64,000 bases of DNA from Thermoleophilia bacterium (GTDB lineage: Bacteria > Actinomycetota > Thermoleophilia > RBG-16-64-13). The position numbers and the translations under genes are program-made. The DNA is taken from positions 6,288-70,287 of the forward strand of contig JBMNPM010000007.1 of assembly GCA_050943595.1 (NCBI GenBank), in the 5' to 3' direction. Position 1 is the stretch's first letter. Each line of letters opens with the position of its first letter. The notes under the pieces were generated by a model. That model ran no database searches. It saw only the letters and a list, made by a program, of their open reading frames with translations, and was not told where the DNA came from. This document shows, piece by piece, positions 978-36,393 of this stretch.

Positions 978-2363
978 ATGAGTATTACTAATAAAACAGT
1001 CCTCTATTATTCGGTGCTACTTTTGTCGTTGTTTATTCTAGCAGTTACTCTCTGGTTGGTATCCGATAGTGGACATTCTTTTAACGAATTGCAAAAACGT
1101 CGCTATGAGTCACGATTGCTTGCTGAGGAGTTGCGACGCAGTTCTGACGACCTGACCCGCATGGCTCGTACTTATGTTATAACTGGTGATCCTCGGTTTC
1201 TTGAATACTTCAAAGAAATATCCGCTATTCGCAACGGGACATCACCACGTCCTGAGAATTATGAAAACATATATTGGGACTTCATTTCTGCTCATAAGAA
1301 TCATGACCGTAAGAGCGGGACAACGATATCTCTCATTGATAAGATGAAAGCCTTGAACTTCTCAGAATCAGAACTGAGTCTACTTCAAGATGCAAAAAGT
1401 CTTTCCGACGATTTAATGAAACTTGAAACTCGAGCATTCAATGCTCTTCAAGGCTTATACCAGGATGGTGAAGGCATCTACAGCGTAAAAGGAAAGCCTG
1501 ACACCATTCTGGCTCAAAATATCGTTTTCGGTGAGGCTTACTATCAGGCAAAATACAGAATTATGGAGAAAATAGACCAATTCTATAAATTACTCGATTA
1601 CCGTACAGAGAAAGAAGTAAACGATGTAGCGCAGCTTCAAAAGATATATCAGGCGATAGCTCTAGCGCTATCGATTATCATTATCGTGATGGTATTTATT
1701 GGTTACGGACTGATTAAAAAGGACATCATCAAACCACTTAATAAACTGTCCGAATGGATCAAGCAGATGCATAGTGGAGAATATAATTTCGATGCACGAG
1801 AATTCAGAAACAACGAAATAGGAATGATAGCCAATGCTTTTGCCGCTATGGCCTCTCACGTGTCGAGCAATATCTTTGACCTTGAGTATGTTTCCCAAAC
1901 AGATCCTCTGACTCAAATTAGTAATCGAAGCGCACTCGATAGGGCACTTATCAACGAAATGCAGAGATTCGAGCAGCACGGTACTCCCTGTTCAATCCTT
2001 ATTATGGACATAGATCATTTCAAGGAAATCAATGACCGCTACGGGCATCTCATCGGAGATAAGGTACTGGTAGAATTCGTCAAAGTATTGAGAGGTGCGA
2101 CACGACTGTCAGATATACCAGGACGGTGGGGTGGAGAGGAATTTATAGTTGTCTGTCCTAACACAGATCTAGAACATGGTAGAGCCGTTGCCGAACGAAT
2201 TCGGAAGCGTATCTCCCATCATAAGTTTGATGAAGTTGGGCATGTTACTGCGAGTATTGGCGTTAGTACGTTTGAAATAGGTGAGTCTCTCGAACAAACC
2301 ATCCAGAAGGCCGACGAGTTATTATATAAGGCGAAAAGCGAGGGTCGAAATCGGGTTTGCTGA
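978..2363 (+). CDS. Membrane-anchored sensor diguanylate cyclase (periplasmic sensor + TM + GGDEF, motif GGEEF, I-site RLSD).
   Basis: N-terminal TM, ~190 aa extracytoplasmic region, second TM, then GGDEF domain (DPLTQISNR...RWGGEEF). Gene is strongly AT-rich (~40% GC) in a ~63% GC context. Confidence 0.8.
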   Translation: MSITNKTVLYYSVLLLSLFILAVTLWLVSDSGHSFNELQKRRYESRLLAEELRRSSDDLTRMARTYVITGDPRFLEYFKEISAIRNGTSPRPENYENIYWDFISAHKNHDRKSGTTISLIDKMKALNFSESELSLLQDAKSLSDDLMKLETRAFNALQGLYQDGEGIYSVKGKPDTILAQNIVFGEAYYQAKYRIMEKIDQFYKLLDYRTEKEVNDVAQLQKIYQAIALALSIIIIVMVFIGYGLIKKDIIKPLNKLSEWIKQMHSGEYNFDAREFRNNEIGMIANAFAAMASHVSSNIFDLEYVSQTDPLTQISNRSALDRALINEMQRFEQHGTPCSILIMDIDHFKEINDRYGHLIGDKVLVEFVKVLRGATRLSDIPGRWGGEEFIVVCPNTDLEHGRAVAERIRKRISHHKFDEVGHVTASIGVSTFEIGESLEQTIQKADELLYKAKSEGRNRVC

Positions 2364-2765
2364 ATCGTTGTTGCACCTCGACTTTTCGTCGACCTGCGCT
2401 GGCAACTTCGTCTACCAGTTCCCCGGCCTGAAACGGAACGATTGCGGTGAGGCGTTTCGACATTCGGCGCGCCGGCACACCCTCAAGAAGATTGCCGCCG
2501 TCCTCGACCTTGCCCACTGCCTGTGCTGGGCTATGCGGCAGCCGACTTTGGCAGCATCCCCGAGCGTTTCATCCGCTACCTGACCGGACCTGCCTGACCA
2601 GGTGACGAAGCCGGCCTTCTACCTCAACACCTATGGACTTGTAAGCGCACGTACCGCATCTGACCTCATCGCGGCTGCGCTCAGCGCCGGCTTCACAGTC
2701 GTCGCCCCCACTTGCTTCGCATGCCGGAGTCGGCTCAAACTCATTGTTGGGCACACCGACCAGCG

Positions 2766-3695
2766 TCACTGTTCTCCAACGTAGTCGGTCGGCCAAGTCA
2801 TCTGCAAGACCAATCCACGCCCCTGGGACTTCCCGCGGTACATCAAATCGTCGGCAAGCCTGATGGCGAAGTCCGCGTCGATCGGAGGCTCCACGAAGGT
2901 GATCGCTCCGAACGTCGCTCCAACGTTCCAGCGCTCACCCATCTCCCTACCGAATGAACCAGCAACACGTGAGAGCGCAGTATGCGCTTCATCAGTCCCC
3001 GCTGCGCTCAACAAGAGACCGAACTCGTCGCCACCAAGCCGAGCAGCAGTATCGACAGCGCGAAGTTCACGCTCGATCGTCTCTGCAACCGCTTGAAGAA
3101 GCCTGTCACCCTCTGAGTGTCCGTGCGTATCGTTCACCTGCTTGAAGTGATCCAGGTCTAGGTAGGCGATGGTGAAGGGTTGCCCGTGTCTTCGGGACCT
3201 GGAGACCTCCTGCTCCACCCGCTCTCTGAAGACGCGGGCATTGGCGATGCCGGTCAGAGAGTCCCTGCGTGAGAGCGCACGCACACGCTCATGCGCCCTC
3301 CGGACAACGGCGACCAGCTCGTTGATGCTCAGGAAGAAGAGGAGCCGCACGGTCGTGTTCCAAGCAGGAATCCACTCCGCGGAGTACGTACGTCCCGTAG
3401 CTTCCAAGTAGCCCCAGATTACTGCCCCTGCGACCGCTGCCAAGCGGCCCGCATTCCGCGAGATGAAGGCGCCTGCGAAGAGCACCGGGAACAGATAGAA
3501 GACCGAGAAGCTGAGCTCTTCACCGGTGAAATAGTCGAGCAGGGCCACGAAGCCCAAGAGAAGTAGGCAGAGACCGGCTCGAACCAACAACGGTGTCGCG
3601 GCGATGCGACGTGCAAGAGAGGGCGCCCTGCTCGGGATTGCAGCCCGCACCGAGGATGGGCGGTCATCCGATCCGCTGTCCCGCGCAACCGCCAA
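2766..3695 (-). CDS. Membrane-associated diguanylate cyclase (GGDEF, motif GGDEF, I-site RAVD).
   Basis: Hydrophobic N-terminus, then DSLTGIANAR...ARLGGDEFGLLL...GKSQGRG. Confidence 0.75.
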   Translation of the reverse strand: MAVARDSGSDDRPSSVRAAIPSRAPSLARRIAATPLLVRAGLCLLLLGFVALLDYFTGEELSFSVFYLFPVLFAGAFISRNAGRLAAVAGAVIWGYLEATGRTYSAEWIPAWNTTVRLLFFLSINELVAVVRRAHERVRALSRRDSLTGIANARVFRERVEQEVSRSRRHGQPFTIAYLDLDHFKQVNDTHGHSEGDRLLQAVAETIERELRAVDTAARLGGDEFGLLLSAAGTDEAHTALSRVAGSFGREMGERWNVGATFGAITFVEPPIDADFAIRLADDLMYRGKSQGRGLVLQMTWPTDYVGEQ

Positions 3696-4005
3696 CCCGA
3701 CCTCCTTTGGCCGTAATGTCCTGGTTGTGCCTAAAGCACCGCGCGTAACCTGCGCGGACTGCAGTCTAGTGGATTGTACCCGCAGCGCCTTGGCGTGTCA
3801 GGTTGATGGGCTTGCTTGGGTAGGTGGCCACTTGATGCTCACTTCTGCGATCAGTGCCGTCGTTCGGCATCAGACTTCGATTCAACGAGAGCGCCGCCAA
3901 TGCGCCGCCAATGTCATGTAAAGAGAACGTCGGCAATGGCCCGGCTGGGACGGCCAAGCTTATGTGACCTTCGAGCCGGAGGCGGTTGATTACCGGCTGC
4001 CGTAG

Positions 4006-4215
4006 GATCACTATATCGGGGATGTGGAGCACGCTATTTTACATCTGATGTACTCGCGCTTCTTCACCAAAGCACTCTACAATTTGGATGTGGTCGGTTT
4101 CGAGGAACCGTTCAAGAACCTGTTCATCCAGGTGCGGAGCTACGTGCTCTTCATGGGCCCGGCTGAAAGCGGTGTCAAGTGGAGCGACCAGGGCGTCGAG
4201 AGGAGGCTACTGTGA
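4006..4215 (+). pseudogene. leuS: Remnant of leucyl-tRNA synthetase (leuS) C-terminal region.
   Basis: In-frame fragment [42 protein letters not shown] ... [12 protein letters not shown] matches the LeuRS region around HLLYSRFF...EPFKRLF and the WSEQGVEG segment. It is bounded by a stop upstream, and the KMSKS region is absent. Confidence 0.55.
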
Positions 4216-4796
4216 CCGGACAGAAGCCGAGGAAAGTGGTAGTGTGTCTATCAATCCGTGCGACGCTCCTTTGCTGCCTGGTGGCCCTCGCTACGGCTTT
4301 TTGTGCCTGCGGCGGCGAGGATGCCGAACCGGCGACCACCACGATCACTACGGCTGTGGAGCCCTCCTCAACCAGCACGACATCGACGACTGAGTTGCCC
4401 ACTGCTGCAGAGCCTCCTACGACCCCGCCCGCGACCGTCGCTATCTCGGCTGCAGCTTCGGTGTACGCGGAGGACCTGGGCGGGACTTCGCATCAGGACC
4501 AGACGCTGTACTTCGTGGTGGGTGCGAGTGTCGGTAGTGAGGAGGAAGCGCAGACCCTGCTGGACGAGGCCGGCATGAGTTTCGGCGATATGCAATCCTA
4601 TTTCATCGTGCAGAACTCCAGCAACTTCGACGGCATGGAGCCGGGCCACTGGGTGATCGTAGAGGCCTACCGCGACGAGCCTTCGGCTGAGAATCTCGAC
4701 TTCGGCCGCCGCGCGTTCCCCGACCTACAGGTGGTGAAAGCCACGGTGTTGACCGGTGACCCCATCCCCGTCTACGAAGAGATCATGGGACTCTAG
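4212..4796 (+). CDS. Secreted/lipoprotein of unknown function with Thr/Pro-rich linker.
   Basis: GTG start at 4212 preceded by GAGAGGAGG RBS. Signal peptide with Cys-containing lipobox region ([10 protein letters not shown]), TTTITT/PPTTPP linker, ~110 aa C-terminal domain. Confidence 0.5.
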
Positions 4797-4889
4797 TAGT
4801 CCCTGGGGTGTGTGGCCGTCCTCCTGCCCGGTCGGGAACCATCAACCACGAGGGCCACCAAATCTCTCAGCGTCGGCGCACAGTGGTGA

Positions 4890-5078
4890 GGAACTCTTAG
4901 GCTGGATGAAGAACACAGGCGGCCTGCGCAAGCTCCTGCACTGAGGACTTGAGAAGGTGAGCAGGGTCTTCATCTTGGCCTGCATGGCCTTCAACCTGGT
5001 GCGAATGGGTACACTTATGGCGGAGCCATCACTCCCGCCCGTTAGCTTATTGAGGCTGTTCATCGGCGTCGACTATTA
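4890..5078 (+). mobile_element. 3'-terminal remnant of an IS1182-family transposase gene (frameshifted).
   Basis: LGWMKNTGGLRKLLH/GLEKVSRVFILACMAFNLVRM reproduces the IS1182 transposase C-terminal pattern (GQIK.NRGFRRFLLRGLEKVS....L.C.A.NL.K) with one frameshift. No intact transposase. Confidence 0.5.
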
Positions 5079-5101
5079 ACACCCTGTTAGGGAGGGGCAC
5101 A

Positions 5102-5845
5102 ATGGGGCGCTTGACCCGCACACTCCTCGTTCTCGCGGCCGTCATCGTCATCGCCCTGGCAGCGTGGTTTGGCATGGGTTTCTTCGTCGCGCCGGCTACG
5201 GGTCCTGTGAAGAGTCAGGTCAGAGAGGTAAGTGACTTCAACACGTTGAAGGTCGACGGACGAGGTACGGTCGTCATCAGGGTCGACGACAAGCCGGCGC
5301 TCCGAGTCGAAGCCAAAGAAAGCGTTCTTGAAAGGCTGCAAACACATGTGGACGGCCAGGTGCTGAGCCTTCATGAACGGTGGGGATGGATGGGTGTCGC
5401 CTTCCTATTCGGGGACCCGAAGATCACCTATTACGTGACCGTGCCCACTCTCTCATCCATCGACCTAAGTGGGTCCATCGTCATTGGGACGGAAGGCGTG
5501 CTCGCCGCGGACAAGCTCAGTATCGACACGAGCGGATCCTCCAATGTGACCATCTCGGTGAACACCAGCAGCCTCACCCTGGATTGCTCCGGCTCGTCAG
5601 ACGTCGACCTCTCCGGCACTGTCGACAACCTAGTCATCGAAGCCAGCGGCTCGACCGATGTACAGGCGCGAGAACTCGTCACCCGTATCGCAACGATCGA
5701 CTGTAGCGGCTCCTCCGACATCCATCTGAACGTCAGTGAGCTACTGACTGTGAAGATGTCCGGCAGTTCAAATGTGACCTATCTCGGAAACCCGCAACTC
5801 AATACCGACTTGTCCGGATCAGGACGGGTCCGCGCAGTCCAGTAG
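5102..5845 (+). CDS. DUF2807 / putative adhesin head GIN-domain protein (membrane-anchored).
   Basis: N-terminal TM, then repeated SGS(S/T)D(V/I) beta-helix-like units (DLSGSIVI, DTSGSSNV, DCSGSSDV, EASGSTDV, DCSGSSDI, KMSGSSNV). Confidence 0.55.
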   Translation: MGRLTRTLLVLAAVIVIALAAWFGMGFFVAPATGPVKSQVREVSDFNTLKVDGRGTVVIRVDDKPALRVEAKESVLERLQTHVDGQVLSLHERWGWMGVAFLFGDPKITYYVTVPTLSSIDLSGSIVIGTEGVLAADKLSIDTSGSSNVTISVNTSSLTLDCSGSSDVDLSGTVDNLVIEASGSTDVQARELVTRIATIDCSGSSDIHLNVSELLTVKMSGSSNVTYLGNPQLNTDLSGSGRVRAVQ

Positions 5846-6164
5846 CCGACACAGGACTGCAGAGACGGCACCGCGCTCCCTGAGCGCGACCGAACAGAGT
5901 TCGTGGTGGGCCACCTGCACCAATTGCGCAGGACCGCTCCAGCAGCGCGACCATGCCCGGGATTTCATATGCCCGACCTGCGCCAGCGAAAAGAGGCAAC
6001 GGCTCCTCCGGTAATACCGGCCCAGGTGGCAGCCCTTGTAGATAACGGTCCGAGCCGGCCTGACGAGGGATCCACGCAGTAACCCGCCGAGATGGGATGA
6101 AGCTCTTGAAGATGCCTGGAAAGAGGGCGCATGTGCTCTCACATGGCGCAGGTTCATCAATGGA

Positions 6165-7169
6165 TCAGCGACGCCTACTATCCAGAAGGCGGCCCAAAAG
6201 CATAGCGAAACACAACGCAAGAGCGGAACTCGCCCACATTAGCCTGACGGCGTTCCGAATATCCGCGGAGCCGGCCGGCCGCCCCGACTCGCCGATGAAC
6301 GGAGCCGCCACCTCGCGGCCGTCGCGACTCACCGGTCCTCCCAAGCGCACCCCGAGGGCTCCAGCAAAGGCGGCCTCCGCCAAGCCTGCGTTCGGACTGA
6401 CATGTTTCCTGCCGTCAAGACGCACCGTCCGCATCACATCACCCCAACTTCGCCCGCGAAGGCCGGCGGCAAGCCCCACAAGCAGGACGCTCAACCGGGC
6501 AGGCAGATAGTTGGCTGCATCGTCGAGACGGGCCGACGCCCAGCCGAAACGGAGATAGCGGGCGTTCTTGTATCCGAAGGTCGAATCGAGCGTACTGATG
6601 GCTTTAAAGGCTACGGCAGCGGGAGCTCCACCTATCGCTGCATAGAGGAGCGGTGAAATCACCCCGTCGACCGTGTTCTCAGCTACGCTTTCCACAGCGG
6701 CTCTGGCCACACCGCTCTCGTCCAAGTCGTCGGTGTCACGCCCCACTATGCGGGCCACCGCCCGGCGGGCGCCCGGCAGGTCTTCCCGGTTGAGAGCCAG
6801 GCGGACGGCTTCCGCGTGAGTGGCGAGATCGCGTGAAGCGATGGCCGTATATATCAGGAGAATAGAGACGAGATCGCCGACACCCGGGTTTATTAGTCTC
6901 CCCCCACGCTCCAAAGCCATAGCAGTCGCTGTGCTGCCAAGAACAATTGCGGCAGCCGTTAAGACACCTGCGTTCCTCTCGTCAGATACGCAGCGACGCA
7001 TCGGCTCTTCGAGGGCGACGGCGGACCGTCCCATCAGCTCCACGGGGTGGGGCCATGAGAGAGGATCCCCGAGCACCAAGTCCAAGCCCCAAGCACACAA
7101 AACTCTCCCCCAGAGCTTCACGATCCTCTCTTCACGATCCTCTCTCTTCTGCAAGTAGATCATCCGCAT
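6165..7169 (-). CDS. cbiB: Adenosylcobinamide-phosphate synthase CbiB/CobD.
   Basis: WGLDLVLGDPLSWPHPVELMGR and membrane topology typical of CbiB. Last gene of the B12 transport/salvage operon. Confidence 0.8.
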   Translation of the reverse strand: MRMIYLQKREDREERIVKLWGRVLCAWGLDLVLGDPLSWPHPVELMGRSAVALEEPMRRCVSDERNAGVLTAAAIVLGSTATAMALERGGRLINPGVGDLVSILLIYTAIASRDLATHAEAVRLALNREDLPGARRAVARIVGRDTDDLDESGVARAAVESVAENTVDGVISPLLYAAIGGAPAAVAFKAISTLDSTFGYKNARYLRFGWASARLDDAANYLPARLSVLLVGLAAGLRGRSWGDVMRTVRLDGRKHVSPNAGLAEAAFAGALGVRLGGPVSRDGREVAAPFIGESGRPAGSADIRNAVRLMWASSALALCFAMLLGRLLDSRRR

Positions 7170-8271: not shown

Positions 8272-9341
8272 GTGCGGTTTGCCCTACGCCTTCTAATCAT
8301 GACGTATAGCACCACCGGAGCACCAAACGCAGCCGTGACAGAGCTGAGGACCAATTCTGTCGGAGCAAATGCCGTTCTTGCTATCAGATCACACCCCAGA
8401 CAGAAGACGGCCCCTCCCAAGAAGCACGCCGGAATCATGACAATCGGCTTCGCCGTCTTCAAAGCGGCTTTTATCACATGGGGAACCGCAACACCAACAA
8501 ATGCGACAGGTCCGGCAAAGGCAGTCACACAGGCAGCCAACAAACTCGAGAGCACTACCAACATCACCCGGAACGCCCTGACATTGACACCCATACTCTG
8601 CGCATAGTTCTCGCCCAGCTGATATGCCCCGATAGGCTTAGACATCAAAAACACCACGACCGAGGTGACCAGCACTACGGCCGTCATCACACCGACATCA
8701 CCCCAAGCAATGCCGGAGAAACTACCGCGGGACCAGTTGTGCAGATTCACGATGTTGGCGTCGTCGGCAAAAGTGATCAGGAAATCGGTGATGGCGGAGC
8801 ATATGTACCCGATCATCACGCCACAGACAATCAACATCGACATTCTCGCCACTCTTCTCGCTATCAGGAGCACGAACCCCATCGAAAGCAGCGCGCCGGC
8901 AAATGCCGCCAGAACAAAGAATCCGGAGCTGACCGTCTGATACGCATCGAGCACCGTGATCATGACGATCGCGACCGTCAGCTTAGCGCCCGATGAGATT
9001 CCCAAGATATAAGGACCCGCGATGGGGTTGTTGAAGAAGGTTTGCAGCAAGAAGCCGGAAAGAGCCAGTGCGCCGCCCAAAACCACGGCGGCGATCAACC
9101 GTGGAAACCGGATCAGCCAAATGATCTTCCCCTCTGTTGATTCGCCCCCCTGCTCGATGATTGCCCGCCATAGTGTGCTGGGCGATAGCGAGAAACTGCC
9201 GAGGGTTATGTTAAGAACCGCCAGCAAAAACAACAGAATAACGAGGCATACAAACACGATGGCGATCCGTGACCGGATCAGCGCTTTCTCAGGAGTAACG
9301 GCAGAGATGTCGGCCTGCGCAGTGGAGTTCGCACGCCTCAT
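8268..9341 (-). CDS. FecCD-family ABC permease (BtuC-like).
   Basis: ~10 TM helices and conserved FecCD motifs (GPYILGISSGA, CGVMIGY). Stop/start coupled with neighbours. Confidence 0.8.
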   Translation of the reverse strand: MRRANSTAQADISAVTPEKALIRSRIAIVFVCLVILLFLLAVLNITLGSFSLSPSTLWRAIIEQGGESTEGKIIWLIRFPRLIAAVVLGGALALSGFLLQTFFNNPIAGPYILGISSGAKLTVAIVMITVLDAYQTVSSGFFVLAAFAGALLSMGFVLLIARRVARMSMLIVCGVMIGYICSAITDFLITFADDANIVNLHNWSRGSFSGIAWGDVGVMTAVVLVTSVVVFLMSKPIGAYQLGENYAQSMGVNVRAFRVMLVVLSSLLAACVTAFAGPVAFVGVAVPHVIKAALKTAKPIVMIPACFLGGAVFCLGCDLIARTAFAPTELVLSSVTAAFGAPVVLYVMIRRRRANRT

Positions 9342-10579
9342 TGCAACTTGTACATGAAAGACAGCTTCTCAAGATCATCGCCACCCACAAGCATCTGGTG
9401 GATGTCGGCAGTCATCAAACCGAGTTTTGTGGTCTCCTGATAGAGGTTCTGCTCGGTACACCATACGTTGCCGGTCTTAACAGCCTTAAAATCAGCCAGA
9501 AGGTTGCTCTTGCCGATGAGTTGATCAATAGTGAAAACTCCACCATCTATCGTACTATTGTATATTATGAAATCAGCATCCTTGGCCGCAGCATAAAATG
9601 CCTCAAATTCCATGGTAACAGTTGATGTCGCTACCGTTGGATCTCCCAACTCATCAAATATATAGTTACCCCCAGCAAGATCTATCATCTTGGTGACATA
9701 GTCTCCCGGCTTTCTGACGACTGCTGATCCCATAGAGTTGATATAGAAGAATGCCACAGTTTTGCCGGTATTTTCAAGGTTCGATACGGAATCCAGATAA
9801 TCAATTTGGTCGTTAAATATGTTCTCTGCTACGTCTTCCTTACCCATCAAAGCGGCATATAGCTTTATCCACTCTGTACGACCCAAAGGATGTTCTTCTA
9901 AACTCGATTGCTCAACGAGTACCGGGATTCCGATCTCCTGCAGTTTTTCCTTTACTTCGGGAGTATGATTGATCATGGTTGACTCGATCGCCAACCTACA
10001 GCCGGTCGCCAATATCAGCTCGTAGTCCGGCCTGCTGTATTTCCCCGCGTACAAAATGTCTCCGTCCTGCATAGCCGTCTTGGCGTTCTCCACATACCAG
10101 CCGTCGGCCTTGGTACCGGATAGTGCAATGGCATCCAATGAATCCAGGGCGTCAAACAGGCACATGGTAGAAGTCGCGACAAGATAGATGTGATCGACGG
10201 GCCGCTTTAAGATCACAATATCCTCATCGACATCATCCGGGGTATCGGCGTCTTCCGGAACAACCAGGAACCGATCCCCGTTCGATATCGAGATCAACGC
10301 GTATCCCCCATTGAAGTAGTCCACGCTGAAATTCTGTGCATATTCGAGGTCCATTGTGGATGTCGGCTGCCAACCGTTTCCAAGCGGATCTCTGCCTGTC
10401 GCGCCGTCATCCGGTGGAGCGCTGGAACAAGCGCTTAGCAGCCCCAGCAACATGAGGATGGCTAGGAATACGGCTACACGGGCTGCACGGGCTACACGTA
10501 TTCTCTTCACGATTCGGCGCTCCCTTCCCAGCGTACTTTCCGGCGTCGGGCGCGCACGAAGACACTCACTTGGTGCCAA
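9338..10579 (-). CDS. Periplasmic (lipoprotein) substrate-binding protein, class III (BtuF/FecB-like).
   Basis: Lipoprotein signal LLGLLSACSS and Peripla_BP_2-like architecture. Adjacent to the permease/ATPase genes. Confidence 0.7.
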   Translation of the reverse strand: MAPSECLRARPTPESTLGRERRIVKRIRVARAARVAVFLAILMLLGLLSACSSAPPDDGATGRDPLGNGWQPTSTMDLEYAQNFSVDYFNGGYALISISNGDRFLVVPEDADTPDDVDEDIVILKRPVDHIYLVATSTMCLFDALDSLDAIALSGTKADGWYVENAKTAMQDGDILYAGKYSRPDYELILATGCRLAIESTMINHTPEVKEKLQEIGIPVLVEQSSLEEHPLGRTEWIKLYAALMGKEDVAENIFNDQIDYLDSVSNLENTGKTVAFFYINSMGSAVVRKPGDYVTKMIDLAGGNYIFDELGDPTVATSTVTMEFEAFYAAAKDADFIIYNSTIDGGVFTIDQLIGKSNLLADFKAVKTGNVWCTEQNLYQETTKLGLMTADIHQMLVGGDDLEKLSFMYKLQ

Positions 10580-11465: not shown

Positions 11466-11579
11466 TGCCCCTCCTTAAGAGGCTGCTGAAATACCAGGGC
11501 GCACACCATATTCCGAGGTGTGCGCCCTGGTCACCAATACTCCAACCAGCCGCCAATACTCCAGCTAGTGCCGGCTACA

Positions 11580-13066: not shown

Positions 13067-13127
13067 GTATTCTGCCCTAGTCACCTAGTACCACACCCCT
13101 GATCTCGAGGGTATGCTTAGCCTCTCG

Positions 13128-13290
13128 CCTACGGGTAGGTATTCTGGCTCCCGGATCACTCTACCGGCTGCGCCTTCCCATCCCTGCGGACAGTGGCATC
13201 AGCAGCCTTCGTCCCCGATCACAGCGGCGGCACCGCGACGGACTCTCACCGTCTTCCCTTGTGGCTGTATTCCAGCCACCCGTAGCCACG
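13128..13290 (-). ncRNA. Cobalamin (AdoCbl) riboswitch.
   Basis: Minus-strand transcript contains AAGGGAAGACGGUGAGAGUCCGUCGCGGUGCCGCCGCUGUGA, B12 box GCCACUG, GGGAAGGC and AGCCAGAAUACCUACC. P1 CUACGGGUGG/CCACCCGUAG. Followed by a terminator. Confidence 0.85.
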
Positions 13291-13386
13291 CGTATTATTA
13301 ACATGCGGTCTGCAGTGCGTCAATATTCCACGCGCCCCCAGCCGCTCCATGAAAATATGAATCCGCCCGGCAGGCGCATAGGGTAG

Positions 13387-27752: not shown

Positions 27753-28399
27753 GAAATAAAATCTCCTTCTGTGTGTGAGGCCAATGTCGATGACTGGGCA
27801 CACCACGGGTGCGGTGGTGTAACCGCGTTATGGATTTCCAAGAACGATTCGGCAGGAACAAGCGTTCGGATTTCTCCGATGTCCTGCGAAGAGAGAAGCG
27901 ACCTATCCCAAGTGACCCGGAATTCGTGCTCAATTCCGCTCTGGGCTATGAGGCTGATGCTCTCGCGTATAGGGACTTCCATCCCTTTTACTCCTGCCAC
28001 AAGATCATATTTGTCAAGTGGAGCTTTGATATCCATAGCTATGTAGGACAACAAACCCTGGGATAGCAGTTGCCTGAGAAGCTCCGGCCTGCTCCCATTC
28101 GTGTCCAGTTTGATATCAAAACCAAGCGCACGAATCAGATGGAGAAAGCGAGGTAGATCCTCCTGCAGAGTAGGCTCTCCACCACTCACAGTCACACCCC
28201 CCAGCCTTCCGACTCGTGTCTCCAGGCGGGCAAGTATGTTGCTTTCGTGCAGAAAGTTGTTGTGATGCGAGTGTCGTGGGATGAGTTGCCGATTGTGGCA
28301 GTAGGGACAACAAAAATTACAGCCCTGAACGAATATCACAGCGGCCACTCGACCGGGGAAGTCGGTGAGAGAGAAGGGGAGGAATCCGCCGATGTTCAT
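27746..28399 (-). CDS. nrdG: Anaerobic ribonucleotide reductase activating protein NrdG (radical SAM).
   Basis: FVQGCNFCCPYCHN radical-SAM cluster motif. Stop/start coupled to nrdD. Confidence 0.85.
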   Translation of the reverse strand: MNIGGFLPFSLTDFPGRVAAVIFVQGCNFCCPYCHNRQLIPRHSHHNNFLHESNILARLETRVGRLGGVTVSGGEPTLQEDLPRFLHLIRALGFDIKLDTNGSRPELLRQLLSQGLLSYIAMDIKAPLDKYDLVAGVKGMEVPIRESISLIAQSGIEHEFRVTWDRSLLSSQDIGEIRTLVPAESFLEIHNAVTPPHPWCAQSSTLASHTEGDFISC

Positions 28400-30600
28400 C
28401 TCTTTTGCCCAATCACATACTCTCTTCGTTTCAGAAACTCAGCCTGTTTTCCATCATTCCACTGACTCACAGGACGCAGATATCCCACTACTCGCGAGTA
28501 GACTTCCGTTGTCTTTCCGCACTGGGGGCAAACGGATTGTTCACCCACTAGATAACCGTGGTCAGCACAAATAGAGAAGGTGGGCGATATCGTGAAATAC
28601 GGAAGAGAATATTCTTGGCACACCGTGCGCACGAAAGCCTTGACTGCTCCGGGGTCGGGTGAAGCCTCTCCCAGAAAGACATGGAAGACCGTTCCCCCTG
28701 TATAGCGTCGCTGAAGGCCGTCCTGCAGGTCGAGAGCGGTGAATACGTCGCCACAGTAGTCCACAGGCAATTGGGTAGAGTTTGTGTAGAGAGCCGGACC
28801 TGTATCGATCTGAGAATCCGTCGGGTCTTGAGGTAACGATAGACCCAGCTTCTTCACCAACACCGCATCAAGACAAGCCAGCCGATGACCGGCACTCTCA
28901 GCCGGAGTAGCTTCAAGGTTGTAGAGATGACCGGTGTCTCGCTGGAAGCCGGCAAGCCGGTAGCGCATGTGGTCAAGTACTCGAGCTGCAAAAGCGAGGC
29001 CATTAGGTGTGCCGATGTCTGCGTCCAGCAGGTTGAGGCAGGCTTCGTTCATGCCAACGAGCCCAATTGTGGAGAAGTGATTATGCCAATAGCACCCGTG
29101 ACGCTCTTTGGCATCGCGAAGATAGAATTTGGAGTAGGGATAAAGATTGGCTTCCGTGTACTGCTCGAGCACCTTGCGTTTGATATCTAGGCTGGACCTG
29201 GCAATATCCATCAGCCGGTCCAGACGCCAAAGAAAATCCTCCTCGTCGTCGGCCAGAAGAGCAATTCTGGGCATGTTGATTGTGACTACCCCGATGGAGC
29301 CGGTAAGAGGATTCGCTCCGAATAGTCCCCCGCCTCGACGCTCGAGTGCGCGAAGGTCGAGACGGAGACGGCAACACATGGAACGAGCGTCATCGGGAGA
29401 CATGTCGGAATTGACGAAATTAGCGAAGTACGGGATGCCGTAGCGAGCGGTTGCCCGCCACAGTCCCTCCAAATGAGGGTTGTCCCAGTCGAAATCCGGG
29501 GTGATGGAATAGGTGGGGATGGGAAAGGTAAATGCCCGGCCTCGAGCATCTCCTTCAGCCAACACTTCCACTAGAGCCTGGTTGAACTGGTCCATTTCCG
29601 CCTGAAACTCACCGTAGGTTTCTTCCTGAAGTTCTCCTCCAATGATGACCGGCCGGCTGCGGAGCCCCTCCGGCGGGCGCAGATCCAGAGAGATGTTCGT
29701 GAAAGGAGTCTGGAAGCCCACACGAGTAGGCACGTTTAGATTGAACACGAATTCCTGAAGAGCCTGCTTGGTATCCGAGTATGTGAGACCGTCATATCGG
29801 ATGAAGGGCGCAAGGAGAGTGTCAAGGCTGGAAAACGCCTGCGCCCCCGCGGCCTCACCCTGGAGGGTGTAGAAGAAGTTGGCCACCTGCCCGAGGGCAG
29901 TGCGCAGGTGCCTGGCAGGACGACTCTCCGCCTTGCCGGCCACCCCCCGGAAACCCTCTCGCAGAAGATCCTCAAGGTCCCAGCCTACACAGTACGGAGC
30001 AAGAGTACCCAAGTCGTGCAGGTGAAGGTCACCCGACTCGTGGGCCTCTCTAATCTCCGAGGAGTAGAGCTTGTTCAGCCAGTAGACCCTGCTGACCTCG
30101 CTGGACACATAATTGTTGAGACCCTGTAAGGAGAAAGCCATGTTGCTGTTCTCCTTAACTTGCCAGTCGAGTTTGTCCAAATAGTTATCGACGAGATCAA
30201 GGTCGGCCTTCTGCGTCAGATCTCGTACGCGGGCGCGCTGGTCCCGGTAAACAATGTAGGCTTTAGCAGTCTTCTTGTAGGGGGAGGCAAGCAATACCTC
30301 TTCGACCAAGTCCTGGACCCCCTCCACCGTGGGAGTCTCACCCCCCAGCATGTCTCGAGCCAATAGAACTACTCGGGTTGAGAGGAACTTCGCAACGTCT
30401 CCATTGTCTTCACTGAACTCTCCGGTGGCCTTGCCCGCCCGGAGTATCGCTGAGGTGATCTTGGCTGTGTCAAAAGGAACCAGCCGCCCGTCTCGTTTGC
30501 GTATCTCGGAGAACGCAGGTAAGTGATGTATCTCCGCCCGAGAGGGCGCACAGGCCGGCAGATCATTGCAGGTTGGGTCCGATGTACCAAATGCCGTCAT
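28396..30600 (-). CDS. nrdD: Anaerobic ribonucleoside-triphosphate reductase NrdD (class III) with N-terminal ATP-cone.
   Basis: ATP-cone (VPFDTAKITSAILRAG); C-terminal Zn-ribbon CPQCG + glycyl-radical region RVVGYL. RBS GGAGAAGG before ATG 30600. Confidence 0.9.
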   Translation of the reverse strand: MTAFGTSDPTCNDLPACAPSRAEIHHLPAFSEIRKRDGRLVPFDTAKITSAILRAGKATGEFSEDNGDVAKFLSTRVVLLARDMLGGETPTVEGVQDLVEEVLLASPYKKTAKAYIVYRDQRARVRDLTQKADLDLVDNYLDKLDWQVKENSNMAFSLQGLNNYVSSEVSRVYWLNKLYSSEIREAHESGDLHLHDLGTLAPYCVGWDLEDLLREGFRGVAGKAESRPARHLRTALGQVANFFYTLQGEAAGAQAFSSLDTLLAPFIRYDGLTYSDTKQALQEFVFNLNVPTRVGFQTPFTNISLDLRPPEGLRSRPVIIGGELQEETYGEFQAEMDQFNQALVEVLAEGDARGRAFTFPIPTYSITPDFDWDNPHLEGLWRATARYGIPYFANFVNSDMSPDDARSMCCRLRLDLRALERRGGGLFGANPLTGSIGVVTINMPRIALLADDEEDFLWRLDRLMDIARSSLDIKRKVLEQYTEANLYPYSKFYLRDAKERHGCYWHNHFSTIGLVGMNEACLNLLDADIGTPNGLAFAARVLDHMRYRLAGFQRDTGHLYNLEATPAESAGHRLACLDAVLVKKLGLSLPQDPTDSQIDTGPALYTNSTQLPVDYCGDVFTALDLQDGLQRRYTGGTVFHVFLGEASPDPGAVKAFVRTVCQEYSLPYFTISPTFSICADHGYLVGEQSVCPQCGKTTEVYSRVVGYLRPVSQWNDGKQAEFLKRREYVIGQKR

Positions 30601-30734
30601 AGCCTTCTCCGTCGTTGTGGAGGCAGAGGCGGGAAGGCCAGGGGTAAACCAAGCTCCCAGGGCACTAGGAACCAGGACACCAGTGAGCCGACCGCCTCTC
30701 TCCCTCGAAGTTGCGGTAGCAGTGCATACTCTCG

Positions 30735-30915
30735 GCCGGTCTTCGGGCTTGTAGGCAGATCCGTCGTGAGACGAGGGGTTCTACTGGTCATCGCTTCCCA
30801 GCCCTAGTTGAGCCAGTGCTTAACTGATGACTTTCGTTCCTACTTACCGCTGCGGGGCAGCTCCGGAATTGCACCGGATTCCCGTGTGAATTGTGAAGCG
30901 TAGGCCACAAATCAC
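30735..30915 (-). ncRNA. Candidate cobalamin riboswitch (divergent variant) in the nrdD 5' leader.
   Basis: Minus-strand transcript contains GGGAAUCCGGUGCAAUUCCGGAGCUGCCCCGCAGCGGUAA (the GGGAA..CGGUG.AA.UCCG...CCCGC...GUAA core), AGCACUGG (B12-box-like), GGGAAGCG and CGGAUCUGCCUAC. A possible anti-RBS (GCCUUCC) lies before the GGAGAAGG RBS. Confidence 0.5.
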
Positions 30916-31178
30916 GCCGACAGCCATTACAGTTTATCCAGGCAAAGGGAGGGCAGTCAAGTATCGGAGGGCGGTTCGAAAAGCGGTCAAGTATCCGTTG
31001 TGGGGAATCCGTTATGGGAGATGCTCAGGCCGGCAACCCTTAGGCGACGCCGTCGGCCTCCACGCGCAACGGCGATCAACACGCATTGGAACAATTCGTC
31101 GCGCTCCGTCGCGCTCGTCAGGTGAGAGGGTTTGAGTAGCCGGGGAAGGCTCAGCTAGAAACAAATCTTGGAGAGTAA

Positions 31179-34100
31179 TTAGTTAGGGCTCCTATATGCT
31201 TCTTTATCAAGGAATTCTTCCAGCGCTTCTGGTAACAGAGGCCTTGAAAAATAGTACCCTTGTATTTCATCGCAAGCTATGTTTCTCAGAAAATCCACCT
31301 GCTCCTTTGTTTCCACACCTTCTGCTGTAATATCCGCCATGAGAGTTCTGGCCAACGAAATAATTGTCTCCACTATAGCAGCTTTCTTTTCCTTTAAATA
31401 GATATCATCTATGATACTTTTATCTATCTTTATTCTGTCAAACGGTATCGATTCCAGCCTATGTAATGATGAGTACCCCTTACCAAAATCATCTAACGCA
31501 ATGCCTACTCCCAGCTCTTTTAGGCTAGATAGTTTTTCAATTACATCCTCAGGATGTTCAGAGAATACGCTTTCTGTAATCTCCAACTCAATATACTTTG
31601 GGTCTACACGATTTCTACCTATAATTTCTGCAAAATCAAGAATGAGATCTTCTACTTGTAGTTGCACAATAGACAGGTTTACAGAAAAACGAAGAGGTGG
31701 AAATCCTCTTAAAATAAGTCTCTTGTGCTCTTGTAGTGTCTGCTCAAACACCCAGAGCCCCACATCATAAATCAATCCAGTTTGCTCTAGTATGGATATA
31801 AATCTATCCGGTGATACTCTTTTATTCCCATCAATAGTCCATCTGAGTAAGGCTTCAGCCCCGACGGTTTTTCCTGTGTCACAACTAACCTGAGGCTGAA
31901 ACTCCAGAAAAAACTCTTTATTCTGCAGTGACCGGAAAAGCCGGTTTGTGAAAAGAGTATTTTCAGCAATATGCTCTTCCAATTTCTTACTATAGAAAAC
32001 AATATCTTTACTCGTATTTTTCGCTTGAAATCCTGCCATGTCGGCATTCTTCAAAAGAGTATATGCATCCTTTCCATCATCTGGATACACAGATATACCT
32101 ATGTGGATAACAGCAAAGAGTGCTTCTACTCCTGTGTCCGCAACTACGGGATGAGAGAAAGAATCAATCAGAGTCTGTGCGCAATTCTCTACCTGCTTAG
32201 TATCTTCTACAGTAGGCAGAACAATAGCAAACTCTCCTTCAGATGACCGTGAGATATCGCAACATTCCTCCAGTAGATTCTCGATCATTGTTGCAGATTT
32301 TATTACTATCTGCTCACCTATACTATGACCAAAGGTATCTTTGATAATCCTCAGATTATCTATTTCAATACTTAATACTGCTAATTTTCCTGAATCTCTT
32401 CTGCTATATATTCTTTGATCCAGTACCTGTATCAACCTATTCTTATTTGCCAATTTTGTATCTTCATCGAAATAAGCAAAATTATACAGTTTTTCTTCAT
32501 CTAGGATCTTTCTCTTCGCATCTCCCAGTATGTTCGCTATAAGGCTTAAGAAGTATGCTTGACTCTCTCTGAGCTTTTCGTCAATCTTACTATACTGTTC
32601 AACGACAAGCACTCCTATTATATTTTCATCAAGCTCTATTGGCAACATATAATAGGAATTTATTCCTCTTGATGTGAAGAATTTTCCTTCATCCCCATCT
32701 TCATCAACGAAAACATTTTTGATGTCTTCGCATGATATAGGTTGTTTATGCTCAATCATAGATTCAACCGTGGGGAAAGCCGCAGCTTCAACCTTCACAC
32801 CCGGGGGGAAAGGAAGTGATTTAGTAGATCCATCCGCCGTATACGCATCAATAATCATTGCATATTCGTAATCCCAACCTAACTCAACCAAATATATTTG
32901 ATCAATTTTAAGTATTTCAGCAGTTGATTTTAGCATTCCACTGATTTTTGCTTTTATATTTTCATTATCAACCGAAATAAAGGAGCTTGAAATTTTTTCA
33001 AGCACTTCGTGTTCTTTCGCAAATCTTTGATATCCTTTTAACTTTGAATCATATTCAGTTGTCAAATATCGGACAAGAACATAAGAAAGTACAACAATAA
33101 CTATTCTTTTCAGATACTGAGTATCATCGATAACGGTATAAGCTTTCGGATGAGTTATCCAAAGAATAACTTGACTTATCAGAGTTATTCCTAAAAAGAG
33201 TAGTGTGTGGATTCTGCTATTAAGAATAATTGTATATAAAAGAAACACTACATATACTGCCCATATTGTTACTCCTCCAATATCAGCATCTCTAATTATG
33301 AAAAAAGACATGCCAACTATGCTTACTACAAGGAATAGAGTGTTCTGAATGTTGTCTTTTGCTGATATATAAGGTATAAATATTAAAAATGCACCTATAA
33401 CTATCACAGTCAAAGCGAGTGGAAGTTCATTTGCCAAACTCCCACTCGCAGTAAAGTATCCTAAAAAGAAGGACCCTGCCCCACCTGCCATAAATATTAC
33501 TGCTGCCGTCTGAAACAAACGCAATCGGCCTTTTTCTAGAGCAATGGTGGAGCCCATAGGCGAATATGTTGCCCTGGGTTTTTCAATAATAAAGCCGAAT
33601 TTCTTCAAGGTTTGAAATAAGACTATTGTGGGAAAGATTAAAAGTATAAGCGTAATTCTAGGAGTTTGGTATAACCCCAATGCACCGGGTAAAATATCAT
33701 TTATTGTTCCCACAACGAGGGGAAGCATTATGGCTATTAAAAAGTACTGCACTTGTCGCTTCATAGGGTTTTGAGGATCAAGTTTTTTCCACCAACGAAT
33801 AATTAATATAACCGCAGCGACTGTATATACAATGTAGTAAAAATTAATCCATATTTGCCCAATATTTGCGGGAAGAGAATTTCTCCATCCAAAATCGCTC
33901 GGTACCATTTCATATTGGTTCTCTGCTAAATACCCAAAGGGTGCAAACAGGAATATATTTATGAAAGTGGGAAAATAGACAATTATAAAGTTTTTAAAAT
34001 TGTTTACTTGATGTTTATTATTTGTTAGTATCAACGCAAAGTGAAGTAACAGGTTGTGGAAGATTCCCCATCCAAAAACAGAGAGGCACCTCCAAAAAGC

Positions 34101-34292
34101 ACTCGATTCCGCCGTCATTGCTGAGTTTGAAATAGAGTACGTGAATGCCCAAATTGCCATTGAGCTTGTTAATAACATAAATAGCCTATTGGTACTGCTT
34201 TTTATGTTGGAAACTATAGCATAGGGACCAAAGAGCATGTAAAAACAAGCGCAAGCATAGTACACAGCAGACATAATTAAGCTGTATTTCAT
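31179..34292 (-). CDS. Multi-TM sensor - GAF - degenerate GGDEF (SEGEF) - EAL c-di-GMP phosphodiesterase.
   Basis: ~12 TM N-terminal region, GAF-like segment, GGDEF-like domain with degenerate motif, intact EAL (EAL, DDFG(K/T)GYSS, QGY). Extremely AT-rich (~33% GC). Confidence 0.8.
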   Translation of the reverse strand: MKYSLIMSAVYYACACFYMLFGPYAIVSNIKSSTNRLFMLLTSSMAIWAFTYSISNSAMTAESSAFWRCLSVFGWGIFHNLLLHFALILTNNKHQVNNFKNFIIVYFPTFINIFLFAPFGYLAENQYEMVPSDFGWRNSLPANIGQIWINFYYIVYTVAAVILIIRWWKKLDPQNPMKRQVQYFLIAIMLPLVVGTINDILPGALGLYQTPRITLILLIFPTIVLFQTLKKFGFIIEKPRATYSPMGSTIALEKGRLRLFQTAAVIFMAGGAGSFFLGYFTASGSLANELPLALTVIVIGAFLIFIPYISAKDNIQNTLFLVVSIVGMSFFIIRDADIGGVTIWAVYVVFLLYTIILNSRIHTLLFLGITLISQVILWITHPKAYTVIDDTQYLKRIVIVVLSYVLVRYLTTEYDSKLKGYQRFAKEHEVLEKISSSFISVDNENIKAKISGMLKSTAEILKIDQIYLVELGWDYEYAMIIDAYTADGSTKSLPFPPGVKVEAAAFPTVESMIEHKQPISCEDIKNVFVDEDGDEGKFFTSRGINSYYMLPIELDENIIGVLVVEQYSKIDEKLRESQAYFLSLIANILGDAKRKILDEEKLYNFAYFDEDTKLANKNRLIQVLDQRIYSRRDSGKLAVLSIEIDNLRIIKDTFGHSIGEQIVIKSATMIENLLEECCDISRSSEGEFAIVLPTVEDTKQVENCAQTLIDSFSHPVVADTGVEALFAVIHIGISVYPDDGKDAYTLLKNADMAGFQAKNTSKDIVFYSKKLEEHIAENTLFTNRLFRSLQNKEFFLEFQPQVSCDTGKTVGAEALLRWTIDGNKRVSPDRFISILEQTGLIYDVGLWVFEQTLQEHKRLILRGFPPLRFSVNLSIVQLQVEDLILDFAEIIGRNRVDPKYIELEITESVFSEHPEDVIEKLSSLKELGVGIALDDFGKGYSSLHRLESIPFDRIKIDKSIIDDIYLKEKKAAIVETIISLARTLMADITAEGVETKEQVDFLRNIACDEIQGYYFSRPLLPEALEEFLDKEAYRSPN

Positions 34293-34519
34293 AAGTTCAT
34301 CTCTAAAGAATAAGGAGCCTGAACTACTAAAGAAGGATCACGTCCCGGCAAGTAGAGTGGAGGCTGTGGCGATGAACGATGCAGGCTGGAAGGGGTATTC
34401 CCTCCCAGGAGACTTTCAGTTTCCTCGTTTGAGGTCTCCCCCTTTGGTTCATATCGAAACCGGCTCCACCCTGAGCTTTCGCAGGCACAGCAGGTCGAAG
34501 GCAGAGTAGCTTCAGGTGA

Positions 34520-34900
34520 AGATGGCCTTAACCCGGGTATGCCCGGATGACGCAGCCCGTGTAGTTCGCCCCAGCCCTTCATCCAGCCAAAGGGCTGCTC
34601 CACCGGCCTACGTGAGTGCCGGCAGAGGAGGTGCTCACGAGAGAGGAGTCGACGGGGCTCGGCCCGGCCGCGCACGCACTCAAAGAACACCTCCGTCACC
34701 TCCCTACAGAACAACCGATCTCGATTGCGGCTGAAGGTGAAGATATGGCCCCACTCGGCACAGAGGTTGCCACGCAGAGGGCTCATCGCAGACAGCGCCT
34801 GGTTCACCATACGACGGATGAAGCGTAGCGGGTAGTCGGCCGGCACCCGATCATCGAGCGAAGCCAGCATGACCATGTTCTCCTGCCACCCTCCATCTCC
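34520..34900 (-). mobile_element. N-terminal remnant of an IS5/IS1182-family transposase (DUF772 region), internally deleted.
   Basis: DRVPADYPLRFIRRMVNQ...WGHIFTFSRNRDRLFCREVTEVFFECV resembles the InsH N-terminal domain (DHSTFSKNRDRL...FFAEV). No DDE domain. Lies between the two AT-rich GGDEF genes. Confidence 0.45.
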
Positions 34901-35241
34901 CCGCATCGCACTCTCCTTAGCCGTGATATGCAAAGAAAAGGCTATTTGAAGAGATATTCTACCCTGAACACCCCTCATAGGAGACAAGGGGGCCGGCGCA
35001 AATGATTTTCTACTAAAGCCAGGATGGCCCAGGAGCAAGCGGATTAACCCGGGACCATTGCACAGGTGGGAAGAGACGGGTGCAACTCAGATGCTGGACA
35101 CAAGAAGACGTAGACACAAGGGTGGGAGTGTGTTGGTGCTCGCCGCGAGCGTGATCGTGGTGCTAGTGCGACGCGCCGGCCCCAACCATAGTGAGGATCA
35201 AAGGCGACAAACTTACCAGCATTACTATGCTATCGACATAT

Positions 35242-36393
35242 CTAACGATATATCACCCTGTCTCTCCCCTCTCCTTTAGCCAAATAGAGGTTTGTGTCCG
35301 CAGCTTCCAGAAATTCAGAGTAAGAGATGCCCTTTACATAACTACTGAGTCCACCGGAAAGTGTTACCGGCTTACCGTGGCTCCATGCATGCGCCCTCAC
35401 CCGATCGCAAAGTGCCTGCACTATGGGCAGTGCTTCCATCGCAGTTTTGCCCGGCGAAAGCACCACAAACTCCTCTCCGCCATATCGACCGAAGATCTCT
35501 TCTTCTGTCAGACTGTCCCTCATGATCTGCGCAATATTGATTAGAACATTGTCACCATACTCGTGCCCATATGTATCATTTATTTCCTTAAAATAGTCGA
35601 TATCCAATATGCAAACCGTCAATTGCGATCCCGTATCGTACGACCGGCGCATTTCCTCGTCGATGCTCGCTGATAAGAAGCGGCGATTGTATAGGCCGGT
35701 CAGGGCATCGGTCTGTGAGATATGCTCCAAGCGGTTTACCAATCTCATCTTTTCATTATGCAACTTCGTATACGCATTCATAACCCTGTAAACTAAAATA
35801 GAACTAACCACTATACACATGGCATAGGTAAACACCAGATCCTCAAACTGTTCTTCACGGCCGGAATACGGTATAATGATATCCGGATAATGATATTCCA
35901 GCACGACAAATACAATCGACATTATCGATAATGCAGACAGCATACCAATGCGTACTGCTCCTTTGAAAACGAAAGCTACGCACAAAGCTCCCACGAGCAG
36001 TACAGGACCAGTGGAGCCGGTCGCCCCACCAATCGTGAACCATAGAAAAGGAATCAGAAGAAAAACAGAGGAGCCTACAACAATAAGGGCAGATCTATAC
36101 CAGCGCTTTGTGACTATACTATATATAGCGCATGAGATGTTCATCAAGATGTACAACACGTATACCGGCAATATAAGTATGCCTAGATCATTCAATATAT
36201 TATAGCCGATTCCGATCATGACCATAAGAAGACCGGCAGCGGCAGTGTATAGAAAAATATTGTGCTCTAGAGGCAAATCTTTAGTGTCAAAAAACTGAAG
36301 AACTCTTTTAAGCAAACTCATCCTTGTTGTTTTTACGGCGGTATTTTCTTCATTATCAGGTGCTCTCTTTAAGTTAGCTTGTAATAACATCAC
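35242..36393 (-). CDS. Membrane (6-7 TM) sensor diguanylate cyclase (GGDEF, motif GGEEF, no I-site).
   Basis: TM N-terminal half, then TDALTGLYNRR...GRYGGEEFVVL. AT-rich (~38% GC). Confidence 0.8.
   Translation of the reverse strand: MMLLQANLKRAPDNEENTAVKTTRMSLLKRVLQFFDTKDLPLEHNIFLYTAAAGLLMVMIGIGYNILNDLGILILPVYVLYILMNISCAIYSIVTKRWYRSALIVVGSSVFLLIPFLWFTIGGATGSTGPVLLVGALCVAFVFKGAVRIGMLSALSIMSIVFVVLEYHYPDIIIPYSGREEQFEDLVFTYAMCIVVSSILVYRVMNAYTKLHNEKMRLVNRLEHISQTDALTGLYNRRFLSASIDEEMRRSYDTGSQLTVCILDIDYFKEINDTYGHEYGDNVLINIAQIMRDSLTEEEIFGRYGGEEFVVLSPGKTAMEALPIVQALCDRVRAHAWSHGKPVTLSGGLSSYVKGISYSEFLEAADTNLYLAKGEGRDRVIYR

Follow-up and report, generated by a model that had tools for sequence, protein, structure and literature searches.

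How a GC-rich bacterial genome comes to hold a few conspicuously AT-rich genes, all from one signalling system, is the question raised by a 64-kb stretch of DNA, called here the window, which was taken from a 112-kb contig of an NCBI metagenome-assembled genome (MAG) labelled 'Thermoleophilia bacterium'. Beside a vitamin B12 (cobalamin) gene cluster the window encodes five proteins with a GGDEF domain, associated with the second messenger cyclic di-GMP (c-di-GMP), and three of the five genes are AT-rich. They lie in two patches, island 1 with the gene G1 (about 644–2732) and island 2 with the EAL gene and G3 (31179–36600). The reading argued here, with a probability of about 0.8, is that of a GC-rich genome with two patches of acquired c-di-GMP genes that keep the composition of their source, by way of the steps proposed below. 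The five genes are as follows, with GC content given as a fraction, GC3 being that of third codon positions, and lengths in amino acids (aa):

978–2363, + strand: G1, predicted sensor diguanylate cyclase; GC 0.418, GC3 0.40; Pfam GGDEF E 6e-45, HAMP 8e-7.
2766–3695, − strand: G2, membrane GGDEF protein, GC-normal (0.613); Pfam GGDEF 1e-34.
31179–34292, − strand: EAL protein, 1037 aa, HisKA_7TM-GAF-GGDEF-EAL; GC 0.369, GC3 0.32; Pfam EAL 3e-69, GGDEF 3e-25, HisKA_7TM 8e-10.
35242–36393, − strand: G3, predicted polytopic-membrane diguanylate cyclase, 383 aa; GC 0.442, GC3 0.48; Pfam GGDEF 1e-38.
60973–63747, − strand: HD-GYP protein, with seven transmembrane (TM) segments and PAS, GAF, GGDEF and HD-GYP domains by Pfam; GC 0.579, GC3 0.71.

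The window has a mean GC of 0.575, its 51 non-overlapping open reading frames (ORFs) have a median GC of 0.586 and a median GC3 of 0.68, and the B12 genes lie at 0.62–0.65. Against this background the sliding-window GC falls from about 0.60–0.65 to 0.35–0.45 at 1000–2400, 31200–34300 and 35300–36500. G1, the EAL gene and G3 are the three lowest in GC of the 51 ORFs (robust z −3.0 to −4.4), and the chance that the three lowest would all be GGDEF genes, with five such genes among the 51, is 4.8e-4. The contrast of about 33–40% against about 63% GC given in an initial annotation of this DNA was somewhat overstated for two of the genes (41.8% and 44.2%, with an ORF median of 58.6%), though their rank as compositional outliers stands. 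A GC profile in 100-bp steps places the change in composition at most 100 bp from the gene ends, so that the borders of the AT-rich genes are sharp, and no donor-derived intergenic DNA adjoining them is detectable in that profile. The atypical composition with sharp borders that marks genomic islands is present here.

Since the window comes from a MAG, and habitats of this kind probably abound in AT-rich Clostridia, the AT-rich segments might be artefacts of chimeric metagenome assembly or of bin contamination. Two Logan contigs from the run SRR11702766, L081 and L082, represent a different strain, 88–97% identical at the nucleotide level. L081 passes from metE, nrdG and nrdD (96.7% nucleotide identity) without a break into the last 443 codons of the EAL gene (92.2%), and L082 from a ferredoxin gene, pdxS and a flavin reductase gene into G3, of which it covers the first 140 bp (about 88%); between them they cross the two outer junctions of island 2, which are thus reproduced independently. 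At island 1, G1 is embedded in DNA of 63–70% GC in three separate assemblies (L083, L084 and L085), which span both of its junctions. The junctions therefore recur in assemblies of non-identical strains or species, and divergence is coherent across them, with synonymous divergence (dS) of 0.05–0.28 on either side. Chimeric assembly was rejected on these grounds and chimerism is excluded for practical purposes, while an artefact of either kind is so improbable as to be hardly credible. The case is also a warning against taking every such AT-rich segment of a MAG for a binning error.

The likely source of island 2 emerges from its homologues. Outside its own MAG the best matches of the EAL protein range from 65 to 49% aa identity over the full length, and about 26 of the 29 named ones are MAGs of Clostridia type, including Lachnospiraceae, Saccharofermentanales, Christensenellales, Clostridiaceae, Ruminococcaceae, Mogibacterium and Eubacteriaceae; an exact-sequence look-up of the protein found nothing on record. 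Homologues of G3 follow the same pattern, at 62–71% aa identity in Clostridia MAGs and biogas contigs, and several contigs bear homologues of both genes. As for the donor lineage, which the initial annotation had proposed to seek by BLAST, the nearest relatives of island 2 (57–71% aa identity) lie almost without exception in MAGs of low-GC Clostridia, island 1 having its relatives in high-GC genomes. The closest EAL homologue (65% aa, 74% nucleotide identity) belongs to a Lachnospiraceae MAG of 42% GC (L086). In three biogas-fermenter assemblies of one population with 40% GC (L089, L090 and L091), a G3 orthologue (62% aa) stands head-to-head with the EAL orthologue that is closest on that contig (58% aa) and is followed by another, co-directional paralogue (50% aa). 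Even gene by gene the GC agrees with that of the donor, with 0.369 here and 0.382 there for the EAL gene, and 0.442 and 0.451 for G3. As the two genes are neighbours both in the donor and here, a single acquisition is the most economical explanation, and they were probably acquired in one event. The closest G3 homologue overall (71% aa, in L092), which has 46.5% GC and neighbouring genes with a GC3 of 0.77–0.81, again sits in a high-GC setting, from which it appears that the G3 family has entered high-GC genomes more than once.

The limits of island 2 are marked by the following features:

30717–30936, − strand: cobalamin riboswitch, Rfam RF00174, 89.4 bits, E 9e-21.
36394–36600, − strand: AT-rich region upstream of G3, about 200 bp, GC 0.41–0.44 by the 100-bp GC profile, conserved in strain L082.

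The riboswitch heads the nrdD-nrdG-metE operon and marks the host-side left border of the island, the flank at this point being conserved at 96.7% in strain L081, and the AT-rich region upstream of G3 belongs with that gene. Between the EAL gene and G3 lies a spacer of 950 bp with host-like GC (0.53–0.69) that contains a relic of an insertion sequence (IS); it would be a later insertion, possibly tied to the changed relative orientation of the two genes. Right after the EAL stop codon the window (31106–31179) and L081 (at its position 1339) differ by a 75-bp indel. In the window it is framed by a duplicated motif, AGCGCGACG(G)AGCGCGACG, a sign of possible slippage or microhomology-mediated deletion at this edge of the island.

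Island 2 is old enough to have diverged along with its host. Between the window and L081 the EAL gene has a dS of 0.28, similar to the values for its neighbours (nrdG 0.05, nrdD 0.14, pdxS 0.20, flavin reductase gene 0.26), so island 2 predates the split of the two strains, its divergence having kept pace with that of its flanks. Purifying selection acts on the EAL gene, the ratio of nonsynonymous to synonymous divergence (dN/dS) being 0.13. The islands are thus not strain-specific novelties, as a strain at dS 0.05–0.28 already has island 2. When substitutions in the EAL gene are polarised with Clostridial outgroups, those from AT to GC outnumber the reverse by 37 to 21, a count biased by the AT-richness of the outgroups, and this fits incipient amelioration.

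Island 1 has a different distribution. Full-length relatives of G1 occur at 89, 82, 69, 67 and 66% aa identity, and all the contexts retrieved for them are high-GC genomes whose G1 homologue stands out by its low GC:

L083, locus from GCA_040769125.1: G1 homologue GC 0.437, flanks 0.63–0.71.
L087 and L094: G1 homologue GC 0.449, flank GC3 about 0.9, IS66 transposase gene adjoining.
L088: G1 homologue GC 0.492, with a second, shortened copy.
L095: G1 homologue GC 0.423.

These homologues occupy differing neighbourhoods, with a gene GC of 42–49% overall and a flank GC3 of 0.8–0.9, and a metagenome scan with G1 returned three close loci only, each lying in a high-GC context or compatible with one. 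The G1 proteins of the window and L083 are 82% identical (dS 0.51), whereas for CbiA and CbiC, B12 enzymes in synteny, the identity is 55–58% (dS of CbiA about 1.8); G1 therefore moved after these lineages split. Island 1 is a gene-sized HAMP-GGDEF cassette common to several unrelated high-GC genomes. The block in common with the relatives reaches past the AT-rich coding sequence into GC-normal DNA, 334 bp of it upstream and 190 bp downstream of the gene:

644–977, + strand: GC-normal upstream flank of G1, aligning along with G1 at 81.9% nucleotide identity to L083, L084 and L085.
2542–2732, + strand: remnant of a flavodoxin/4Fe-4S gene, 87% identical in nucleotides to the inside of a 265-aa gene in L083 and 85% to L088.

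The remnant, of about 190 bp, keeps residues 80–118 only of a gene that is intact 3' of G1 in L083 and L088, and a homologue of G2 (86% nucleotide identity) adjoins the G1 copies in L088; in L087 and L088 homology to the G1 region begins only about 15 bp before the ATG. GC-normal flanks that travelled with G1 point to transfer between high-GC genomes and not to direct import from a low-GC donor. A more distant homologue (L173, 49% aa identity), of native-looking composition in a genome of about 47% GC, hints that the ultimate source of G1 had moderate GC.

Composition alone could have another cause, for AT-richness might be kept by selection in high-GC lineages, through an AT-binding silencer or through rare codons, in genes that are long resident and not recently imported. 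The EAL gene has the same GC3 in the window and in L081 (0.322 and 0.327) at a dS of 0.28, as selection would have it, and GGDEF genes are again the lowest in GC in two other high-GC loci, 3 of the 18 genes in L083 and the lowest 4 of the 10 in L088. Selection of this kind does not, however, explain why two GGDEF proteins of the same window are GC-normal, why the nearest relatives of the EAL gene and G3 are native, equally AT-rich genes of low-GC Clostridia, or why G1 is far more alike between genomes than core genes are. The GC3 of G1 rises to 0.50–0.54 in some hosts, as amelioration predicts, and the polarised EAL substitutions, with the bias already mentioned, run in the same direction. Long residence under selection is consequently improbable, and the acquisition of AT-rich genes by a GC-rich genome accounts better for both islands. 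By the same pairwise comparisons the nearest relatives lie in another lineage, as expected of genomic islands, those of the EAL gene and G3 in Clostridia, and G1 showing 82% identity where the core shows 55%.

The AT-rich pattern in L083 and L088 recurs beyond the gene used to find these loci. Further GGDEF genes beside the G1 homologue (4230–5567 and 13065–13973 in L083; 6726–7685 and 9429–10151 in L088) are also lowest in GC, at 0.447–0.545 against 0.63–0.71, and one of them encodes a CHASE-GGDEF protein. A general rule, by which c-di-GMP genes would systematically be AT-rich outliers in unrelated high-GC anaerobes, owing either to a preferred supply from low-GC Firmicutes or to selection for AT-richness by silencer or rare codons, is a speculative extension of this pattern and rather doubtful.

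If the genes were acquired, the means by which they arrived might be sought in the debris that lies near them:

4024–4215, + strand: leuS (leucyl-tRNA synthetase) pseudogene fragment, coding part; NCBIfam TIGR00396, E 1.3e-14.
4885–5028, + strand: C-terminal tail of an IS5-type transposase; tblastn to IS5-family transposase C-termini, E 5e-8.
34517–34906, − strand: IS5-type transposase remnant, internally deleted; tblastn to annotated IS5-family transposases, E 4e-8.

The leuS fragment, correctly called in the initial annotation, consists of two stretches with an internal deletion (model positions about 529–564 and later), in which about 60 residues are left and which score 53.4 bits against a full-length cut-off of 548.4. 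The remnant between the EAL gene and G3 had been described as an internally deleted IS5/IS1182-type transposase. The deletion holds, since tblastn alignments to plasmids show a gap of about 50 aa consistent with it, the catalytic core being deleted, and the IS5-family similarity holds as well; the specific assignment to IS1182 is not supported. NCBIfam matches of this remnant are weak (IS5 E 0.006, 15.9 bits against 140; IS1182 E 0.1, 11.5 bits against 270), and Pfam gives none even at E up to 1. The tail near island 1, which matches in 2317 plasmid records and has no Pfam or NCBIfam match, was confirmed as similar to the IS5 family and is not frameshifted as had been thought: its translation, '...GWMKNTGGLRKLLH*GLEKVSRVFILACMAFNLVRMGTL', keeps to one frame, which a stop codon at 4942–4944 interrupts. 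The transposase calls were to be given up if the fragments failed profile searches (DUF772/DDE_Tnp_1); in Pfam they do fail, and only BLAST similarity to IS5-family genes rescues them. On such sequence similarity the label of IS5/IS1182-type relics appears justified, with the subgroup IS1182 not resolved. Both are relics and not elements. Neither the window nor any locus fetched holds another copy of either, and no terminal inverted repeats or target-site duplications were found around them.

The position of these relics, one exactly between the EAL gene and G3 and the other 2.5 kb from G1, together with the IS66 transposase gene after the G1 homologue in L087, would suit three independent acquisitions by composite transposons of IS5/IS1182 type, the IS fragments being what is left of the vectors. 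The relics have, however, host-like and not donor-like GC (0.53–0.69), and paired IS copies, inverted repeats and target duplications are lacking. The EAL gene and G3 were, moreover, already neighbours in the donor population, and between the IS tail and G1 lie a GGDEF gene of native composition and other debris. Acquisition of three genes by three transposons is hence unlikely. The initial annotation's repeated acquisition and rearrangement survives in a reduced form, with at least two events and real debris (leuS, two IS5-type remnants and the truncated flavodoxin/4Fe-4S gene), while three events are not required.

The preferred course of events, acquisition in two patches, may be set out as follows. 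Island 2 would have come from low-GC Clostridia of the biogas-reactor kind, the EAL gene and G3 arriving together, and an IS5-type element with host-like GC would have been inserted between them and have decayed to a 390-bp remnant. For the copy of island 1 another high-GC lineage would be the source, the short GC-normal flanks having come with it. The truncated flavodoxin/4Fe-4S gene, the leuS fragment and the IS tail would be the debris of later deletions and rearrangements. The horizontal origin claimed at the outset for the AT-rich c-di-GMP genes is supported by their composition, by the homologues in low-GC Clostridia, by the incongruence between G1 and core genes, and by the junctions in independent assemblies.

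Several points weigh against this history. Neither island has terminal inverted repeats, target-site duplications, flanking repeats, an adjacent tRNA gene or an integrase gene, the nearest tRNA genes lying at 47.4 kb and 60.5 kb of the window. The closest sampled donor proteins are only 65–71% identical, so that the true donor has yet to be sampled and the date of transfer is uncertain. In the donor the closest EAL orthologue is head-to-head with G3, whereas the two genes are co-directional in the window, so that acquisition as a single block needs an inversion or a donor with another order of paralogues. A relative without the islands, with an 'empty site', was not found among the GTDB species representatives scanned via nrdD, where the best match reached only 71% identity (MAGs of Armatimonadota and Planctomycetota) and the pdxS or flavin-reductase side was shared by none; L081 and L082, the one close relative sampled, carry island 2. 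The host's taxonomy, finally, is taken from the NCBI label and from nothing else.

What the acquired genes might do can be read from their domains and motifs. All five GGDEF proteins called initially are confirmed by Pfam, the EAL and HD-GYP fusions included, with GGDEF (PF00990) scores of 89–153 bits against a cut-off of 23.8, and the motifs called initially are correct. G1 consists of an N-terminal TM segment, a helical CHASE3-like sensor (the CHASE3 match being weak, E 9e-4), a second TM segment, HAMP and GGDEF, and has a GGEEF active site and the RxxD inhibitory site (I-site). G3 has GGEEF and lacks the I-site, while G2 has GGDEF and the I-site, and the HD-GYP protein has GGDEF and HD...GYP. 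The motif GG[DE]EF is accordingly intact in these four proteins, and the 1037-aa EAL protein departs from it with SEGEF. The EAL domain of this protein (PF00563) scores 233.5 bits against a cut-off of 31.3; it has EALxR as EALLR, and the further EAL motifs DDFGxGYSS, KIDKS and EGVE are readable in the translation as IALDDFGKGYSS, IKIDKSII and AEGVETKEQ.

From their intact motifs, G1 and G3 are predicted to synthesise c-di-GMP when extracytoplasmic or membrane signals are sensed, and the EAL protein is most likely a c-di-GMP phosphodiesterase, its degenerate GGDEF and its GAF domain probably acting as regulatory modules. The Caulobacter protein PdeA is a phosphodiesterase of this kind, with a degenerate GGDEF domain followed by EAL. 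The EAL protein resembles PdeA in having a degenerate A-site, here SEGEF, beside an EAL domain with all catalytic motifs, which suggests a phosphodiesterase with a regulatory GGDEF domain, and differs from it in an N-terminus made up of a polytopic seven-TM (HisKA_7TM-like) region and GAF. The HD-GYP protein belongs to the native c-di-GMP repertoire and G2 is apparently native or long resident, so the acquired genes would give a host network of G2 and the HD-GYP protein new sensory inputs. Recent paralogy with native genes was rejected as an origin, the EAL protein being only 25% identical to the HD-GYP protein; G1 and G3 are 37% identical to each other, in the GGDEF domain only. A functional tie of the c-di-GMP genes to the adjacent B12 genes was not found beyond proximity, and G1 lies within about 10 kb of cbi genes in L083 and does not in L087 and L088. 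Rfam yielded no c-di-GMP riboswitches in the window, giving only two cobalamin riboswitches and tRNAs, and promoter-like sites in the AT-rich DNA are in no significant excess (18 against 12.7 ± 4 expected).

Transfer of c-di-GMP genes is documented on integrative and conjugative elements (ICEs), on plasmids and as stand-alone genes, with DgcX of E. coli O104:H4, diguanylate cyclases on SXT/R391 ICEs of Vibrio cholerae and plasmid-borne c-di-GMP genes as examples (PMC10333796). Like these known acquired GGDEF and EAL genes, those of the window are foreign accessory turnover genes added to a native network, some of them stand-alone, and patchy among relatives. Unlike the DgcX and SXT/R391 cases, the transfer seen here would cross phyla, a high-GC genome labelled Actinomycetota having received genes of low-GC Clostridia, with an unusually strong contrast of 20–25 points of GC and in gene-sized pieces that have no ICE, plasmid or phage backbone. 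With classical genomic islands the two patches have in common a sharp deviation in GC and codon usage, IS debris, pseudogene fragments and a content that varies between relatives; they differ in their size of 1.4–5.4 kb, in having no tRNA site, integrase or flanking direct repeats, and in comprising one functional class only. The kind of event is already known and no new mechanism is revealed, though the window would offer a clean, well-delimited case of a high-GC genome importing signalling genes from another phylum, with sensory c-di-GMP enzymes that come as one- or two-gene pieces, under purifying selection and with the donor composition kept. It may thus be a useful case study for the rewiring of second-messenger networks in anaerobic communities.

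Other features of the window concern its remaining genes and spacers. The next-lowest GC is that of a gene for an SLH-domain protein (55308–56669, − strand; GC 0.479, GC3 0.50), and a gene for a BtuF-like periplasmic binding protein (9338–10579, − strand; GC 0.498) is also among the next-lowest; both are candidate foreign genes with no relation to c-di-GMP. At 36718–36807, between G3 and the flavin reductase gene, the spacer holds an array of eight phased 10-bp units in the order TTATCCACGC twice, TTCTCGATGC, TTTTCTACGC, TTCTCGACGA, TTATCCACGA, TTCTCGACGA and TTATCAACGG, at which strain L082 is about 45 bp shorter. Its core, TTATCCAC, resembles a DnaA box, and all three exact TTATCCACG sites of the window fall in the array; there is no GC skew switch, so that the array is not an obvious origin. 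At 25473–30936, nrdD (anaerobic ribonucleotide reductase), nrdG (its activase) and metE (cobalamin-independent methionine synthase) stand under the cobalamin riboswitch described above, and this block, with a GC of 0.52–0.56, lies below the B12 cluster in composition and may itself be an older import. The B12 cluster itself contains a second cobalamin riboswitch (13117–13298, − strand, 105 bits), upstream of cbiK and of genes for a BtuFCD-like B12 transporter.

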